This document shows positions 9,342-26,754 of a stretch of 64,000 bases of DNA, piece after piece. How positions within the stretch are numbered: the first letter of the stretch is position 1; every line of letters starts with the position of its first letter. The notes under the pieces were generated by a model. That model worked only from the letters and a program-made list of their open reading frames with translations. It was not told the DNA's origin and ran no database searches. The stretch is taken from the NCBI GenBank assembly GCA_964599625.1, contig CAZRGC010000005.1, positions 10,462 to 74,461 on the forward strand, written 5' to 3'. A program made the position numbers and the translations under genes. The DNA comes from an uncultured Gammaproteobacteria bacterium. Lineage in GTDB: Bacteria > Patescibacteriota > Microgenomatia > UBA8517.

Positions 9342-9584
9342 TTACTTCCGGCCGCCCTCAACGAGGGGGATCAGGAAGATGCTGTCGCCGTTGCGGACAG
9401 TGGCGGTATCCCAGTCGTCCTCGGGGATGACTGCTTCGTTGCGCTCGACAGTGTTGACGTCATCGAGTGAGAAGCCGGCCGCTTCGACCGCTTCGCGCAA
9501 ATTCATGGCGTCACCTTCAAAGGTGTACTGCTTGGTATCGCCGTCCGAGAGGTCGGCAACCGTAATCGTGCTTTTTCGTGCCAT
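9342..9584 (-). CDS. ubiquitin-like / MoaD-ThiS-like beta-grasp protein ending LVEGG-RK (2-residue extension after di-Gly)
   Basis: 80 aa from ATG at 9584 with SD AAGGAG; ORF-track start at 9626 is a TTG; C-terminus GGRK; adjacent E1 and JAB genes; visibly GC-richer than neighbours. Confidence 0.65.
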   Translation of the reverse strand: MARKSTITVADLSDGDTKQYTFEGDAMNLREAVEAAGFSLDDVNTVERNEAVIPEDDWDTATVRNGDSIFLIPLVEGGRK

Positions 9585-9641
9585 CGTAGGCTCCTTGAAA
9601 AAAGTTGGGAATGTAATGTACTGCAATCTTACTTGCAGCGC

Positions 9642-10310
9642 CTATTCTACCATCATGCGGAATCTTTTCAAATCCACTGTTATGGCTTTAGGCAATGAAC
9701 CCGGATCTGTAAGAAAAGTTTTGACAACTTCGCCAACAACACCGGCACAGTTCATGACTGTGTAAAAAATAGCCGCTTGGGTGCAAACGGCATTGTGGAC
9801 TTTCACCTTGCGGAAAAGTTTTTCCTCGTATGCCTCCACCCGGATTTTGTCGCCCATTGGAATGGGGTAAATCTGATAAAGCTCTCCCGCCATCCTGGTT
9901 TCCACATACAAAGGAATGTGTTTGGAGCTCTTTCTTACCCCGCGCCAAATGTCTTGTCTGCCTTCGATCGAATGAACCGCACTCACAACAATTCCGTTAA
10001 GAGCTGTTGGTGCATGGTAATCTTTGGCAAATGGCGTTGCCTGGACAGTGGTGAATTCCATTAGATTTGTCGCCAAAGACTCTGCCTTTCCCTTACCAAG
10101 TTGAGATAACTTGAAAAACTGGTTGGGCAAATTATGGCTTTCGATCTTGTCGCTGTCCCAAATGGAAAGAATGTCCACACCCATCTTGGCAAGTGTGAAT
10201 CCGATCGGAGACCCCAGGCCGCCTGCACCAATCAAAACAAACGGATATTTGTTCAGGATTTGGGGAGGCAAAAGGCCCATCTGTCTCGTAAAGTTCAAGC
10301 GTTTTCCCAT
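9642..10310 (-). CDS. minimal ThiF/MoeB/E1-like adenylyltransferase (222 aa)
   Basis: Rossmann motif VLIGAGGLGSPIGFTLAKMGV and WDSDKIESHNLPNQFF (DxDxVExSNLxRQ-like); SD AGGAGG; candidate Cys in CTQAAIFYTVMNC. Confidence 0.8.
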   Translation of the reverse strand: MGKRLNFTRQMGLLPPQILNKYPFVLIGAGGLGSPIGFTLAKMGVDILSIWDSDKIESHNLPNQFFKLSQLGKGKAESLATNLMEFTTVQATPFAKDYHAPTALNGIVVSAVHSIEGRQDIWRGVRKSSKHIPLYVETRMAGELYQIYPIPMGDKIRVEAYEEKLFRKVKVHNAVCTQAAIFYTVMNCAGVVGEVVKTFLTDPGSLPKAITVDLKRFRMMVE

Positions 10311-10849
10311 TCAACCTCCTGTTTCGAAGATGGTTTGTAAACGACCTTCTCAGCAACTTCCTTTTCCAACTCTGCGCGCGTAAAGATTACTTCGTCTTTG
10401 CCCGTGTAGGTGTAAATCGTGAAGTTAAAAACGGAAAAGGGTTCGGGTTTTTGGATGTCGTACCGGGTCGCGAAATGTCCCTCTTTATTCCCCACAATTG
10501 AAAACAGTGGATATTTTTGGGACATCCGTTTGATTGTCTCGTCATCCTTGTCGCGCGACCAACCAACTTGGAAAACTCCATGGCTATGCCACCAAAGGCG
10601 GAAAGCCGAAAGAGGAATGCCTTTGCCAACCATCTCACGCACAAAGGCGGAGTGGCCCAATGGGTCAAAAGTGGTCAGAATATCTGTTGCGGTCTGTTTA
10701 ATAAGATAAAGATTGCGCACGTAGTGCACACCTTCAACCTCCTCAATATGACCCAGCCCACTAATCTCGCCTTTGGCAATGTCGATGTAGGTAAACCACT
10801 TTTCAAAAACAGTCTCCGGCATATAGACTACCGGTAAATAATCTTCCAT
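10295..10849 (-). CDS. JAB/MPN (JAMM) metallopeptidase
   Basis: Glu in GLGHIEE plus WWHSHGVFQVGWSRDKD (HxH-x7-S-x-D); 16-nt overlap with E1 gene; SD AAGGAG. Confidence 0.7.
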   Translation of the reverse strand: MEDYLPVVYMPETVFEKWFTYIDIAKGEISGLGHIEEVEGVHYVRNLYLIKQTATDILTTFDPLGHSAFVREMVGKGIPLSAFRLWWHSHGVFQVGWSRDKDDETIKRMSQKYPLFSIVGNKEGHFATRYDIQKPEPFSVFNFTIYTYTGKDEVIFTRAELEKEVAEKVVYKPSSKQEVEWENA

Positions 10850-10858
10850 ACCATCTCC

Positions 10859-11761
10859 TTATGATTCTCTTGCGAAAATCATCATCGACTCTGCGGCAAG
10901 GGCCAGTTCCTTCTTTTTCAAAAACTGGCTGACACCGTGGTGAATATTCCCCAAACAAAGTCCACCGCAGGAATATACATGTTCATGCTTTCCTTGATAT
11001 GCAGGGGATAAATAAAAAACCTGCACAAACGCGCTTTCATCCCAGTCGTTGGGGCGCATCACCACCAGTATCTCTCCAATGTTGACTTTGTTTTGGTCAC
11101 CACCAGATTCTCTGTACTGTGTTTTGCCCAAGCTAAACCTGATTTCATCTTCAGTTACAATCAGTTCGCCCTTGGATATCTTGTAGATATAGTCGTATTG
11201 CTTCTTGATCTGGGCATTGCTGAAATGGGTGCGTCTGAAAAAGGTCTGGAAGTTCTTGAACGATGCGCTTCTGAGATCTTGACGCTTTTTTCCTTCGATC
11301 ATTAACCTCTCTTCAAAGCCAGGAATTTTTTCATAGGCATCAAGAATGCGTTTAAGGACAAGGAGGGCTTTTTGCTTCTCATCGTCCTCGTAGACTGGAA
11401 GGTCAAAAGGTATGTAGATTGTGTTTCCCACCACCTCGGCCACCACGTTTTCGTCATTGTCCGTGATCGGATAACCTATGAGAGATGTTTGGACTCCTTC
11501 CCTTTGTGAATAGAGAAGTTCTACTCCGAACGCTTCGACAATTGAATTTTCGGAAGCGTTAGAAAATGGCCCAACCGAAGCGGAACGCCGGAAATAGATA
11601 TCCAGCCTGTTTTTGCGCATGTTTGGAATGCCAAAATCGGGTCGATCGAAGTCGTCATCCCCTATATGCACTGCATGAATATTGATCTTCCATCGTATTG
11701 CGTAAACCTGAAGAATCAACTTAATTTCTTCTTCAAGTCCTTCTACTTCAACTGTGTTCAT
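10859..11761 (-). CDS. protein with C-terminal UBC/E2-like active-site signature (300 aa from ATG 11761)
   Basis: HEHVYSCGGLCLGNIHHG matches E2 HPN-x7-C spacing and G-x-[IL]-C-L-x-[IN]-[IL]; N-terminal 240 aa unassigned; ORF-track start 11818 is TTG. Confidence 0.45.
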   Translation of the reverse strand: MNTVEVEGLEEEIKLILQVYAIRWKINIHAVHIGDDDFDRPDFGIPNMRKNRLDIYFRRSASVGPFSNASENSIVEAFGVELLYSQREGVQTSLIGYPITDNDENVVAEVVGNTIYIPFDLPVYEDDEKQKALLVLKRILDAYEKIPGFEERLMIEGKKRQDLRSASFKNFQTFFRRTHFSNAQIKKQYDYIYKISKGELIVTEDEIRFSLGKTQYRESGGDQNKVNIGEILVVMRPNDWDESAFVQVFYLSPAYQGKHEHVYSCGGLCLGNIHHGVSQFLKKKELALAAESMMIFARES

Positions 11762-11876
11762 ACTATCCTTTCCACGAAGTAGTCGTGATTTCGTTAAAAT
11801 TTCAAAGTTCAAAACCAAAAAACCAACTTGGGGATTTTATCATATCTCATAGTAAGCGGCAACTAAGCAAGGTGTG

Positions 11877-13079
11877 TTATTTGTCCTGCTGAAGTTGTTT
11901 GAGGCCCATCACTCTCAAGTAATCACGATCAAAAGCTGCCACTAATGACTCTTTGGAAGAAAGCGGTCCGGGTTTTAGAAACCTAGTGCCTGCGCCTTTC
12001 TGCACTCTTGCGCAAATATCCAAAAAGTCCTGCTTGTTGGTTAGGTCCCAAAAATCCACAGCATCCTTGGGGTTGTAGCCAGGAGACTTGGCAGCGTCTT
12101 TCCTAAAAAGCCATCTACTTATTATTTTTGTTTTGTTCTCAGATATGGGAACTATCAAGTCATAGTTGACATAATCCGGATGCACTCCCAAAAGAAGCAT
12201 TCCCGGAGAAAATGAATATGCGTAAAGCCGCTTAACCTCGTCCTCCTTAAAATCCCCCAAAAGGGGTGCGCAAAACTCGCCGGAGATTGTAAGGTCATCA
12301 TATCCTTCTTTAACAAGCATATACCCACCCAAAACCGGCCCTTCTGTAACATCGTTGAACCAGGATTTGTAACCGGAAACCCTTATCAACTGAGGATGCT
12401 TTGTAGGACAATGATCACACTCTTCATAGTTTTCAAAAATTATTTTCCAATTTGCAGGGATATTGTTATAAACAATTTCTGCTCCCAACTCTAGCTCCCC
12501 TAATCCGTATTTATCCAAATCTGTCGGCAGATAAGGAAATGCCTCTTCAAAATTCATTGGTCTATTCGGGTCAACATTAATAAATATAAAACCGTTCCAC
12601 ACATGAACTGCAGACTCCTGAATGCAAAGCTCTTCCCTTTCAAACCCTTCGGTTTCTTCCAATGCCATGGCATTAATTACTTTTCCATTTTTATCAAAGG
12701 TGATGCTGTGATAATCGCACTGAATAACCTTGTTCAACTTCTTTTCTTCTTTTTCTTCTGTTATTTCGACGTCCCTATGCCCGTGATTTTCATCGTGTGG
12801 ATCTTCCATCAAACGGATATTTCGGTGTGGGCAAACATTATGCAGTGCCTTAACACCTCCGTCTTCACCTCTAAAAACTATTATGCTTTCGCCGTCAATT
12901 TCATACAAAAAATAATTATCGGGATTGGGTATGTCGCTTACATGCCCAACACAAATGGGGTTTTCATAAATGAACTTTTCTTTTTCTTTTTGGAAAATCA
13001 CCTCGGAGGTGTAAAACTCACCACTCAATACTCGCGAACCCTTCACAAACGTCTCCTGTGTTCTTTTTGCTTCCGTCAT
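11877..13079 (-). CDS. Rieske [2Fe-2S] domain non-heme iron oxygenase-like protein
   Basis: Rieske boxes VCPHR and QCDYH (unusually long His-rich spacer DPHDENHGH); candidate mononuclear Fe site EECDHCPTKH. Confidence 0.55.
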   Translation of the reverse strand: MTEAKRTQETFVKGSRVLSGEFYTSEVIFQKEKEKFIYENPICVGHVSDIPNPDNYFLYEIDGESIIVFRGEDGGVKALHNVCPHRNIRLMEDPHDENHGHRDVEITEEKEEKKLNKVIQCDYHSITFDKNGKVINAMALEETEGFEREELCIQESAVHVWNGFIFINVDPNRPMNFEEAFPYLPTDLDKYGLGELELGAEIVYNNIPANWKIIFENYEECDHCPTKHPQLIRVSGYKSWFNDVTEGPVLGGYMLVKEGYDDLTISGEFCAPLLGDFKEDEVKRLYAYSFSPGMLLLGVHPDYVNYDLIVPISENKTKIISRWLFRKDAAKSPGYNPKDAVDFWDLTNKQDFLDICARVQKGAGTRFLKPGPLSSKESLVAAFDRDYLRVMGLKQLQQDK

Positions 13080-15741: not shown

Positions 15742-15814
15742 GGCCCTATCGTCTAGTGGCCTAGGACACGGGGTTTTCAGCCCTGTAACCTGGGTTCGAA
15801 TCCCAGTGGGGTCA
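15742..15814 (+). tRNA. tRNA-Glu (anticodon TTC)
   Basis: acceptor GGCCCTA/TGGGGTC (2 GU), D-arm GTCT-AGTGGCCTA-GGAC, anticodon loop TTTTCAG, T-arm CTGGG-TTCGAAT-CCCAG; no encoded CCA. Confidence 0.85.
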
Positions 15815-15831
15815 CTCAAAAAATCATTGGA

Positions 15832-15927: not shown

Positions 15928-15999
15928 GGGCCCATAGCTCAATGGTAGAGCAACACCCTTTTAAGGTGATGGTTACAGGTTCGAGTCCTGTTGGGCTCA
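15928..15999 (+). tRNA. tRNA-Lys (anticodon TTT)
   Basis: acceptor GGGCCCA/TGGGCTC, D-arm GCTC-AATGGTA-GAGC, anticodon loop CTTTTAA, T-arm ACAGG-TTCGAGT-CCTGT. Confidence 0.85.
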
Positions 16000-16063
16000 C
16001 TCGCGTACGCTCCCTCTCCCACCACTCTTTGATAGTGCTTTTAAGGATAAATGTTTTGCGCAT

Positions 16064-19257: not shown

Positions 19258-19328
19258 TGGGGGATCGTCTAATGGTAGGACAGCAGCCTTTGGAGCTGTG
19301 AATTGGGGTTCGAATCCCTGTCCCCCAG
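19258..19328 (+). tRNA. tRNA-Gln (anticodon TTG)
   Basis: acceptor TGGGGGA/TCCCCCA (U1-A72 typical of bacterial tRNA-Gln), D-arm GTCT-AATGGTA-GGAC, anticodon loop CTTTGGA, T-arm TGGGG-TTCGAAT-CCCTG. Confidence 0.85.
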
Positions 19329-19393
19329 CTCGCAGACTCGCTGTTGTTCAGTGATTCGATAGTGCGAAAAATGGAATCTAATACTTTGCACGG

Positions 19394-23571: not shown

Positions 23572-24774
23572 ATGAGATCAAACTCAAAACCTATCATCAA
23601 AACCAGATGGGAAACCGATGCTTACAAACTGAGCATGGGCATGATCTTCTGGTTATTTTTCAAACACGTTTTCGCTCGATATGTGTTTGTAGACAGACTC
23701 AATCTCCCATATGTGCCTGGCTTGGCCGAGAGGATGCGCGAGCAAGTGAAAATGGTTGCCACCTTGCCTCCCCACATGGACCGCGCCGAATTCGTAAAAC
23801 GGAAATGGCCGTTCATCCTGTGGAGGTTTCTGGTTTGGTACGCCAATCTCAGATTCAACCCCGACCAGGTGAAAATCTCAGTAGTCAACGGAAGGCTTTC
23901 GATAATTGTAGAGGGTCCTATATACGAGGCAACTCACTGGGAAATCATGCTTTTGCGCATTCATTCCAGTCTCTATACGGAGATGACCGGAAGGACCCCC
24001 AAACCTGGCTGGCGCGAAGAAGCAATTGCGCACTCACGCTTTTTCTTTGAACATAGCGTGGCCTATGTCGAAGGTGGCGGACGCCGTCCGTTTTCCCCCG
24101 AGGTACACTGGGACGCGTTAACCGCATACTTCACCTATCCGCAAATCGAAAAAGGCAAAGGTGGAATCATGGGCACATCATTTATCGAGTATGCATTTCA
24201 GCTCGAAGTAATGATGTTTGGAACCCAAGCGCATGAATACGGTTCCTTCATGGGTGCTTTTTTTGGCCATGAGAATGCCAATGAAAAAGCCTTGGAGTAT
24301 TGGGTCAAAGTTTACGGCAATCAATTGGGATATGTGTTACCAGACACCTACACAACCGAGAAGTTCTTGGAAGCGTTCGTGCGTGGATATGCCATACTCT
24401 TTAGCGGCGGCCGACAAGACTCTGGAGACCCATACAAGTTTACCAACATGTTTATAGGCCACTACCGAAGTGAAGGCATCGAGGTAGATCCAACAAGCAA
24501 GAGCATCGTTTACAGCAATTCTTTGAGAAACGATGATGAAATCCTGCGTCTCAACGAGTACAAACTCGGTGAGTATATAAGGTCATTCCTGTTTGGCGGC
24601 CTCATCACCAACAACGTTGGGTACGATGCCTACAACACAGTGCTCAAGCTTTTTGCCATATGGTTGGTCGGCGAGCCCGAACACCTTGCTGTCAAACTCT
24701 CGGATGATCCAAGAAAATCCGTAGGCGACCCCCAAGAAATCATTGTGGCACGCCAAAAAGTCGGCATCACCTAA
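23572..24774 (+). CDS. pncB: nicotinate phosphoribosyltransferase (NAPRTase family)
   Basis: N-terminal TDAYKLSM, FGTQAHE (GTxAH) and GGRQDSGDP (RxDSGD) motifs; 400 aa; GC-richer than flanks. Confidence 0.7.
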   Translation: MRSNSKPIIKTRWETDAYKLSMGMIFWLFFKHVFARYVFVDRLNLPYVPGLAERMREQVKMVATLPPHMDRAEFVKRKWPFILWRFLVWYANLRFNPDQVKISVVNGRLSIIVEGPIYEATHWEIMLLRIHSSLYTEMTGRTPKPGWREEAIAHSRFFFEHSVAYVEGGGRRPFSPEVHWDALTAYFTYPQIEKGKGGIMGTSFIEYAFQLEVMMFGTQAHEYGSFMGAFFGHENANEKALEYWVKVYGNQLGYVLPDTYTTEKFLEAFVRGYAILFSGGRQDSGDPYKFTNMFIGHYRSEGIEVDPTSKSIVYSNSLRNDDEILRLNEYKLGEYIRSFLFGGLITNNVGYDAYNTVLKLFAIWLVGEPEHLAVKLSDDPRKSVGDPQEIIVARQKVGIT

Positions 24775-24797: not shown

Positions 24798-24838
24798 ACC
24801 TGGAGAAAGGATATTAAGCCCCTCCAGGTTTTTTTGTG
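24798..24838 (+). terminator. intrinsic terminator (CCTGGAG...CCTCCAGG + TTTTTTTGTGGGG)
   Basis: hairpin + T8 after pncB stop. Confidence 0.65.
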
Positions 24839-24898
24839 GGGAAAAAACTTAAATATACTTAAACCCTATAATAAATATTTGTGCTATAATTCCCCTTT

Positions 24899-25528
24899 AT
24901 GGAATATTTACTCAGGCGTGCCAGAGAAATAATGACACCCAAAGAAAAGGTGCTGCCTTTAACCATGACAAACGAAGCTAGGGGCCATTTGAAAAGGTTG
25001 CTTTCTAGACCAAATCCCTTTCTTTCTGAATTTCTGTTCTATGCGCTTGGTAAAAACGGTATCATCGACACAATTGTGGCAAACGAACATCCCATGTATC
25101 CAGGTTCGGGGCTGCGTCAGGATGGCCCAAATAGCTACCTCTCTACGGCTGGAGAAGACGATGCAGAAGCACTAAACAAAAAACTGCTATCAGTTGGGCG
25201 ATTTGAAGACATGCTTGTTTATGGACACACTCACCCATCAGGTAGCTTTATATTCAAAGGCCAAAGACTGACGGTCGCGCCCAGTTACTCACACCTCAAT
25301 CCATCCTCGGGATCCAAGCTTTCAGGCGGAATTACAAGTGCTCACGATATGAAGGCGGCAAGACTCTTGGCCGAAAATTGGAGAATATCAAACACACCTC
25401 CCCACTTTGGAATTGCAGCACTCACCGAGGATGGTTACAAAATGAAAGTATTTAACACGCAGGATCTGGCAAAAGCCAAACGCTACCAAGACATAGACAA
25501 TGCCCAACAAATAACCATCGATCTGTAA
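24899..25528 (+). CDS. RadC-like JAB/MPN domain protein, tandem paralog 1
   Basis: ANEHP Glu, VYGHTHPSG (RadC HNHPSG-like) and downstream SAHD; 209 aa. Confidence 0.55.
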   Translation: MEYLLRRAREIMTPKEKVLPLTMTNEARGHLKRLLSRPNPFLSEFLFYALGKNGIIDTIVANEHPMYPGSGLRQDGPNSYLSTAGEDDAEALNKKLLSVGRFEDMLVYGHTHPSGSFIFKGQRLTVAPSYSHLNPSSGSKLSGGITSAHDMKAARLLAENWRISNTPPHFGIAALTEDGYKMKVFNTQDLAKAKRYQDIDNAQQITIDL

Positions 25529-25553
25529 AAACATGCAGTGCTAAAATCGAATT

Positions 25554-26177
25554 ATGGAAATCTCCACTCAACAACCGCAAGAACTGACAAAAACGATAGA
25601 GAACGAAGTCGCTCTCACCATGACTAAGGAATCATCTCAGCTTCTTGGAAAATTATTGCTCCGCCCCAACCCCATGTTTTCAGAGTTCATGTTTTTTGCC
25701 TTGGGTGAAAATGGAACCATCAACGAAATAGTTGTTGCAAATACCGAAAGCCACCACCCTGAATCCGGCATTAAATTCGGACTTACTGGTTTTGGCCTTG
25801 GGGTATCAAGGAACGAACTGATTCAAGTTATGCAGAAACTTGAAAGAGAAGGTAAAATCGACAAAATCATGGTAGTTGGGCATTCTCACCCCTCTGGTAG
25901 ATCTGTACACAAAGGAATCACTCTACAAATAGATCCCAGCGACGAACTTTTGGAGCCATCTATGGGTGGGGTGCTGCAAGGAGGCCCGACAAAAGCAAAA
26001 GATCTCAAATTTGCATACGACTTGGAGCACGATGCAGGATTTCCTCATGAATTTTTTGGTATTGGAGCCGTAACAAACGAAGGACCCAAACTCAGGATAT
26101 ACAGAACAAAAGACCTGTCAAAAGTTAAAAAGAGCAAAGAAATTAACAGCCTCCCCCAGCAAACAATCAAACTTTAA
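25554..26177 (+). CDS. RadC-like JAB/MPN domain protein, tandem paralog 2
   Basis: ANTESHHPESG, VVGHSHPSG, PSDE; colinear similarity to 24899..25528 (LLxRPNPxxSEFxFxALGxNG...). Confidence 0.55.
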   Translation: MEISTQQPQELTKTIENEVALTMTKESSQLLGKLLLRPNPMFSEFMFFALGENGTINEIVVANTESHHPESGIKFGLTGFGLGVSRNELIQVMQKLEREGKIDKIMVVGHSHPSGRSVHKGITLQIDPSDELLEPSMGGVLQGGPTKAKDLKFAYDLEHDAGFPHEFFGIGAVTNEGPKLRIYRTKDLSKVKKSKEINSLPQQTIKL

Positions 26178-26181
26178 AAAC

Positions 26182-26754
26182 ATGGAACCAAAAAAAATAA
26201 AATTGGGCGCCAAAGACCTACGGAAAACCCCCCCAACTCCCGAGACTTTCGGAACCATAAAAAGAAATCCAATATATTTTGTCTTGGACAATGTAATCGA
26301 TACATACAATATCGGATCAATGTTCAGGTTAGCCGACGCAGTTGCGGCAGAAAAACTATATATATGCGGAGACGTAGAATACCCCCCAAATAGCCGAATT
26401 CACAAAGCAGCCGTTGGAACAGAAGAATGGGTGCCATGGGAAAAACGTGACAATGCAGTTGAAACAATAAAATATCTTCAAAACAAAGGTATCCAAATAG
26501 TGTGTGTAGAACAATCCCCTACTTCAATACCAATGACACTACTTTCAATGAAACTCCAGTTTCCAGTTGCCATTGTTGTTGGCAACGAAACAACAGGAAT
26601 TTCACAAAATGTCCTGGATGAGTCAGATCTGATTGTTGAACTACCAATGTTTGGAGTAAATAAGTCTCTGAATGTTTGGGGCAGTGGAGCGATTGTTGCA
26701 TACAATGTAGTCCAAGCTTTAATATCCTCACCATATTTCAAAAAAAATAAATAA
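26182..26754 (+). CDS. SpoU/TrmH family RNA 2'-O-methyltransferase
   Basis: SPOUT motifs NIGSMFRLADA, VVGNETTGIS, MFGVNKSLNVWGSGAIVAY. Confidence 0.75.
   Translation: MEPKKIKLGAKDLRKTPPTPETFGTIKRNPIYFVLDNVIDTYNIGSMFRLADAVAAEKLYICGDVEYPPNSRIHKAAVGTEEWVPWEKRDNAVETIKYLQNKGIQIVCVEQSPTSIPMTLLSMKLQFPVAIVVGNETTGISQNVLDESDLIVELPMFGVNKSLNVWGSGAIVAYNVVQALISSPYFKKNK

Follow-up and report, generated by a model that had tools for sequence, protein, structure and literature searches.

The window analysed here is a stretch of 64,000 nucleotides (positions 10,462 to 74,461 of the forward strand of contig CAZRGC010000005.1, assembly GCA_964599625.1), deposited as an uncultured Gammaproteobacteria bacterium and placed by GTDB in Patescibacteriota; Microgenomatia; UBA8517. 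Bacteria of the candidate phyla radiation (CPR) have tiny genomes that contain many unannotated genes. We investigated two adjacent open reading frames (ORFs) of this window, which encode paralogous proteins with a predicted JAB/MPN fold (the zinc-protease fold known from deubiquitinases) and with the Glu, His, His, Ser and Asp residues of the JAMM pentad:

24899-25528, forward strand: ORF1, 209 aa, predicted JAB/MPN-fold protein with a complete JAMM pentad.
25554-26177, forward strand: ORF2, 207 aa, paralog of ORF1 with a predicted JAB/MPN fold and an identically numbered pentad.
25028-30, 25226-28, 25232-34, 25304-06 and 25346-48, forward strand: ORF1 codons of the pentad residues E44, H110, H112, S136 and D150, respectively.

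ORF1 and ORF2 are 38% identical in a colinear, full-length alignment (BLASTP, E 1e-43). Compared with the orthologous pair on a related contig (L006), the ratio of nonsynonymous to synonymous substitution rates (dN/dS) was 0.087 for ORF1 and 0.094 for ORF2, low values which indicate that both are real genes under purifying selection. An initial annotation, made from the DNA letters alone, had described two adjacent, colinear paralogs of 208 aa each; the coordinates were exact and the paralogy holds, but the lengths are those given above. The strings RPNPxxSEFxF and GHxHPSG that it pointed out are present in both ORFs and are kept by homologs, and Pfam indeed finds neither an N-terminal helix-hairpin-helix (HhH) region nor any other domain in the two proteins. 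Its S-x-x-D motif, on the other hand, had to be abandoned: S147-A-H-D150 of ORF1 is a coincidental match, residue 147 being an unconserved position that is Lys in ORF2. The conserved serine of both proteins is S136, which lies in a 'PS' motif 13 residues ahead of D150. We read the pair as divergent copies of a standalone protein of probable JAMM/MPN+ type.

Searches of ORF1 and ORF2 against Pfam (E up to 1), NCBIfam, PHROGs, PADLOC and the PDB (phmmer and profile) returned nothing meaningful; neither protein matched Pfam JAB (PF01398) or Prok-JAB (PF14464) at E up to 1, let alone at the gathering score. Prok-JAB matched two of 48 family members, both below threshold. The better match is to the motif region of the member P0040 (E 0.0026, 18.1 bits against a cut-off of 25), and a phmmer search of P0040 against the PDB gave no JAMM match. 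Structures were then predicted for ORF1 from six sequences (pLDDT 74.9) and for ORF2 from 44 sequences (pLDDT 91.9, pTM 0.86). The two score columns of the structure comparison read:

Caldiarchaeum Rpn11 homolog: 10.5 and 8.6.
CSN5: 10.2 and 9.5.
Rpn11: 9.8 and 9.8.
PfJAMM1: 9.5 and 10.0.
DSY2949 (2kks, Prok-JAB): 8.9 and 9.7.
Cap3: 8.3 and 8.9.
BilC: 6.6 and 7.4.
BubCD: 6.8 and 7.4.
RadC (2qlc): 5.5 (rank 41) and 5.8 (rank 39).

Structure prediction and comparison together settled the fold proposed in the initial annotation: on the predicted models ORF1 and ORF2 carry the JAB/MPN fold, and the family is structurally nearest to the archaeal JAMM1/Rpn11-type and the Prok-JAB peptidases. To the JAB core the family adds a beta-hairpin between HxH and Ser and a C-terminal extension of ~40 residues, and the window's clade further adds a Gly-rich loop between Ser and Asp. 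The same data bear on the proposed affinity to RadC, which would make the pair DNA repair or nuclease proteins. RadC (PF04002) belongs to the JAB superfamily, and its HNHPSG and PS...D strings look similar to the GHTHPSG and GHSHPSG of the window proteins. Nevertheless, Pfam RadC matched none of the 48 members at E up to 1, the HhH domain is missing, and the motif spacing and the extensions differ. A RadC-like function is extremely unlikely, and the affinity to RadC is refuted by the absent Pfam match and the structure rank.

The initial annotation had made the JAB assignment depend on conservation of the Glu, His and Asp residues across homologs, and the full pentad (Glu44/His110/His112/Ser136/Asp150) is present in ORF1 and ORF2 and in 38 of 44 aligned members. 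Five members outside the window (P0036, P0043, P0045, P0050 and P0051, on contigs of ~1 kb each) have lost all or most of the pentad residues together and are MPN(-)-like. If the five residues form one functional, catalytic site, they should be kept or lost as a set, as is seen here. By analogy, the intact and degenerate members of the family parallel the eukaryotic MPN+/MPN- split, as in the Rpn11-Rpn8, CSN5-CSN6 and BRCC36-Abraxas pairs. Unlike in these pairs, neither copy in the window is degenerate, each having all five residues, and the related loci L014 and L012 carry one copy.

Upon inspection of the motif, we noted that the window proteins read HxH-x23-S-x13-D rather than the canonical E-x(n)-H-x-H-x(7)-S-x-x-D. 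The 23-residue segment between HxH and Ser forms a beta-hairpin in the predicted model, and in the window's clade Ser and Asp are separated by an 11-residue Gly-rich insertion (S-x-G-x4-GGPT-x3-D). A canonical PSxxD is found in distant members (16 of the 44 aligned, of which 13 have all pentad residues). Only P0040 has a complete HxHx7SxxD, which reads GHTHPIADYYPSDAD. The motif of the window proteins is thus a true JAMM motif enlarged by insertions. In the ORF2 model HxH ends a strand and Asp begins a helix, the same order of elements as in solved JAMM enzymes.

In BubCD the active site consists of H91/H93/D104 plus E28, with the two His and the Asp holding zinc and the Glu acting as catalytic base (PMC11601596). 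By analogy with such enzymes, from which we infer zinc binding and chemistry, ORF1 and ORF2 are fairly probably catalytically competent, zinc-dependent peptide or isopeptide hydrolases. H110, H112 and D150 would hold Zn2+, which would activate a water molecule; E44 would act as general base and S136 would support the tetrahedral intermediate. Cleavage would take place in the C-terminal tail of a substrate, presumably a protein, at a peptide or isopeptide linkage.

Several known systems resemble the family in part. The archaeal standalone JAMMs (P. furiosus JAMM1, 5ld9; the Caldiarchaeum Rpn11 homolog, 6fjv) are likewise single-domain proteins with a Glu/HxH/Ser/Asp site. By contrast, the window proteins are 14% identical to them, not detectable from them at the sequence level, and ~80 residues longer (N-terminal helix, hairpin inside the motif, C-terminal extension), and their family has no genes for SAMPs or for ubiquitin-like proteins (Ubl) and E1 nearby. 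Prok-JAB genes are reportedly typically linked to ThiS/MoaD/E1 genes (surveys of Iyer, Burroughs and Aravind), a linkage that the window family lacks. Cap3, BilC and the BubC domain of BubCD share their catalytic residues with the family but are encoded within E1/E2/Ubl or CD-NTase operons, whereas members of the window family are so placed in none of 11 neighbourhoods.

To gauge the extent of the family, we ran HMMER exhaustively on 1.84 billion cluster representatives, using a profile built from six sequences. This search returned 46 matches, 45 of them true; the remaining one, P0049 (2016 aa), is a false positive made of SpaA repeats, and the true members are all ~200 aa. The exhaustive search was needed, as word-indexed homolog searches recovered just 2, 4 and 7 proteins. 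Locus searches with alignments A1 and A4 recovered 2 and 3 loci. The few members that carry source names come from Candidatus Pacebacteria and Candidatus Chisholmbacteria. By these searches, this is a new, unannotated and lineage-restricted family, so far from CPR bacteria of the Microgenomates group. We also noted that two loci, L013 (CAZQCI010000183.1) and L014 (CAZRJH010000006.1), are labelled 'uncultured Nitrospiraceae' and 'uncultured Gammaproteobacteria', respectively, while being syntenic with the window over the NAPRTase, JAB, SpoU and pilus genes; these labels of metagenome-assembled genomes are probably binning or taxonomy errors.

Members occur as tandem pairs in the window lineage, L019/L020 and L031, as a dispersed pair in L021, and as single copies elsewhere. 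The ORF1 type has an ortholog in L014 and the ORF2 type in L012 (bootstrap 100 each), in both cases the sole copy preceding SpoU, a methyltransferase gene described below. These supported orthologs suggest that the duplication is old and that an obligate ORF1-ORF2 heterodimer is unlikely, although a second copy may lie elsewhere in the genomes of L014 and L012. We rejected a fixed pair of A and B paralogs since paired genomes mix different subclades and deep nodes are unsupported.

The immediate surroundings of the pair contain the following features:

23572-24774, forward strand: NAPRTase gene, upstream of ORF1 (Pfam 1.3e-22).
24798-24836, forward strand: hairpin with a U7 run behind it, resembling a terminator; it lies after the NAPRTase stop (24774) and before ORF1 (fold -19 kcal/mol, z -2.2).
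24882-24890, forward strand: extended -10-like box TGcTATAAT, 8 nt upstream of the ORF1 ATG, read from the sequence.
25539-25547, forward strand: extended -10-like box TGcTAAAAT, 6 nt upstream of the ORF2 ATG, read from the sequence.
26182-26754, forward strand: SpoU/TrmH-family RNA 2'-O-methyltransferase, 190 aa, starting 4 nt after the ORF2 stop (Pfam SpoU_methylase 1.1e-32).

The upstream NAPRTase gene had been recognized in the initial annotation, and the Pfam match bears it out. The hairpin was missed by a consensus terminator scanner because its loop exceeds the limit of that program. In NCBIfam, the methyltransferase is RlmB/TrmH-like, below equivalog cut-offs. ORF1, ORF2 and SpoU form a tight same-strand cluster that appears to be transcribed apart from NAPRTase: the hairpin, the -10-like boxes and the 4-nt gap before SpoU suggest that the JAB genes probably share a transcript with SpoU but not with NAPRTase. 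The boxes (TGnTAWAAT) lie just 6-8 nt before the starts and come without a Shine-Dalgarno sequence, both at the window sites and in the L017 spacers, where genes have the same upstream layout as ORF1 (TGTATAAT, ~8 nt, ATG). With this arrangement, transcripts of these organisms may have no leader or almost none. At L021, the NAPRTase (1316-2500) shares only 32% identity with that of the window, against 69% for SpoU of the same two loci; a distant homolog has probably taken the place of the NAPRTase at this position. The window also carries type IV pilus genes, on the strand opposite to the JAB pair, and such gene content agrees with an organism of the same kind as those named for the family members.

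We next examined the 11 distinct neighbourhoods of family members, thereby carrying out the synteny comparison that the initial annotation had recommended. A member lies directly upstream of an orthologous SpoU gene in the window lineage, L012, L014, L019, L021 and L029, and with one gene in between in L025, i.e. in seven of the 11 contexts, and SpoU is the gene that most consistently adjoins the family. Ubl, E1, E2 or CD-NTase genes were found in none of the 11. Neither the 252-aa gene between JAB and SpoU in L025 nor the 357-aa upstream gene in L012 encodes a family member or a NAPRTase.

The SpoU association raises the possibility that the family works with the adjoining methyltransferase in RNA modification or ribosome biogenesis. 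It might process or regulate that enzyme, a ribosomal protein or a protein bound to RNA, or it might act as an amidohydrolase on a modified nucleoside. In five of the seven contexts the genes are separated by 0-9 nt or overlap by 4 nt. The pairing survives where the flanks have changed (upstream in L012, on both sides in L029), and it is kept with different paralogs, the ORF1 type in L014 and the ORF2 type in L012. Nevertheless, the Pacebacteria and Chisholmbacteria members and those of L017 and L018 have different neighbours and no SpoU, operon neighbours are often unrelated in function, and we know of no precedent of a JAB protein acting on RNA. Overall, we regard a SpoU-linked role as improbable.

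The JAB proteins diverge much faster than the adjoining SpoU proteins (27-57% versus 63-78% identity). This fast divergence, together with repeated duplication, might instead reflect a family of accessory defence or anti-defence proteins that spread as mobile genes. The Chisholmbacteria member has HigBA-like toxin-antitoxin genes on one side and a type I restriction-modification system on the other, and the gene for the 218-aa protein P0013, a distant family member that is identical in two otherwise unrelated neighbourhoods (L017 4700-10700 and L018 1-10277), lies in a segment of just 839 bp, 99.4% identical, that is all the two cassette-like arrays have in common. On the other side of the balance, PADLOC and PHROG gave no match, and the context in the window's clade is stable and housekeeping-like. 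A phage or anti-defence origin, also suggested in the initial annotation, was not borne out by IMG/VR pattern scans, GenBank phages or PLSDB plasmids, none of which contained relatives, and BFVD gave only weak matches (TM at most 0.36). A role in conflict is therefore very improbable.

The arrays of L017 and L018 deserve description in their own right. Both are runs of small genes on one strand, with stereotyped spacers between neighbours; in these spacers, 'GTYCTGATTGAGTCCAAGGCGGGGAGCAA' or 'GTTCTAAAAYCGTTCCAG..GCGAGC' right after the stop is followed by '..GAACTTTTGTATAAT', ~8 nt and an ATG; repeated spacer elements also bound the shared 839-bp segment. These elements have no Rfam match, and their motif is absent from the window. 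From their sequence, the two loci give the impression of a CPR cassette array whose genes are being shuffled.

Lastly, we turned to the proposal that the pair consists of additional Ubl-processing or deconjugating peptidases. It was based on a Ubl/E1/E2-like operon elsewhere in the window:

9342-11818, reverse strand: four-gene cluster encoding a 319-aa protein, a 184-aa protein (10295-10849), a 222-aa ThiF-like E1 and a ThiS-like protein (9342-9584).

The ThiS-like protein (Pfam ThiS 1e-07) and the adjoining ThiF-like E1 are real. The UBC-like C-terminus of the 319-aa protein is weak and non-significant (E 0.25). Other Pfam and PDB matches of the 319-aa and 184-aa proteins were likewise noise (collagenase, E 0.014; Pept_tRNA_hydro, E 0.004). 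The cluster looks like a compact Ubl-conjugation or sulfur-carrier module in a CPR genome. ORF1 and ORF2 could be the dedicated peptidases of this module, removing Arg-Lys after the Gly-Gly of the Ubl precursor and/or reversing its conjugates. The ThiS-like protein ends in ...VEGGRK and hence would need trimming before adenylation, and it is the only obvious candidate substrate in the window. Such trimming is the job of the known JAB peptidases BubCD, BilC and Cap3 (PMC11601596). Moreover, there are standalone bacterial JAMMs whose ThiS/MoaD-type targets have their genes at another place in the genome: TtuB is the target of Thermus JAMM, with a link to tRNA modification (PMC3980101), and MoaD-MoaE that of Deinococcus DRJAMM (PMC8832034). 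The window pair would resemble these in the distance between the JAMM gene and the ThiS/MoaD-type gene.

Other observations speak against a dedicated link. A distance of 15 kb and opposite strands separate the operon from the pair, and its own 184-aa protein, which has an E...HSH(x7)S-x-D pattern, no Pfam or PDB match and no relation to the JAB family by hhalign, may be its peptidase. Furthermore, none of the other 10 family neighbourhoods contains Ubl/E1/E2 genes, and the four operon proteins have no relatives within ~8 kb (less at contig ends) of any other family member. We thus consider this role possible but rather unlikely.

Two further observations concern the surroundings of the ThiS/E1 cluster. 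The only three tRNA genes of the window, all on the forward strand, are located between this cluster and the JAB pair: tRNA-Glu(UUC) at 15742-15815, tRNA-Lys(UUU) at 15928-16000 and tRNA-Gln(UUG) at 19258-19329. In other organisms, precisely this set of tRNAs has 2-thiouridine at position 34. A TtuA/Ncs6-like gene was looked for near the tRNA genes and not found, so the placement of the trio may be a coincidence. Beside the cluster (11877-13079, reverse strand) lies a gene for a 400-aa Rieske / ring-hydroxylating oxygenase alpha subunit (Pfam 1.5e-26 and 3e-16), which is unexpected in a reduced CPR-type genome.

Taken together, the data would accommodate a fast-diversifying JAMM family that is coupled functionally to the SpoU methyltransferase and/or to the ThiS-like GG-RK/E1 module, a view that we put forward as unlikely in this full form. 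Several points weigh against our main reading of the pair as JAMM/MPN+ hydrolases. The motif spacing is non-canonical, with 23 rather than 7 residues from HxH to Ser and 13 rather than 2 from Ser to Asp; no sequence profile of Pfam, NCBIfam, PADLOC or the PDB puts the window proteins in any JAB family; and some MPN proteins are scaffolds, not enzymes. In addition, no substrate gene is linked in any of the 11 neighbourhoods, and the family adjoins SpoU only in genomes with SpoU proteins of 63-78% identity, hence part of this adjacency may be inherited gene order.

On present evidence, the family adds modestly to a superfamily that is already very large and well known. Based on the predicted models, a fold and a probable chemistry can now be assigned to ~45 clusters (at 50% identity) that lie outside every domain library, and the family illustrates that the JAMM motif can be stretched by insertions yet stay intact. 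If its members do act on the ThiS-like GG-RK protein or together with SpoU, they would provide an entry to the control of protein or RNA modification in organisms that are unculturable alone. Coupling to SpoU and/or to the ThiS/E1 module would then uncover, in ultra-small symbiotic bacteria, either a hitherto unrecognized step of proteolysis or deconjugation within RNA modification or translation control, or a genuine Ubl cycle.
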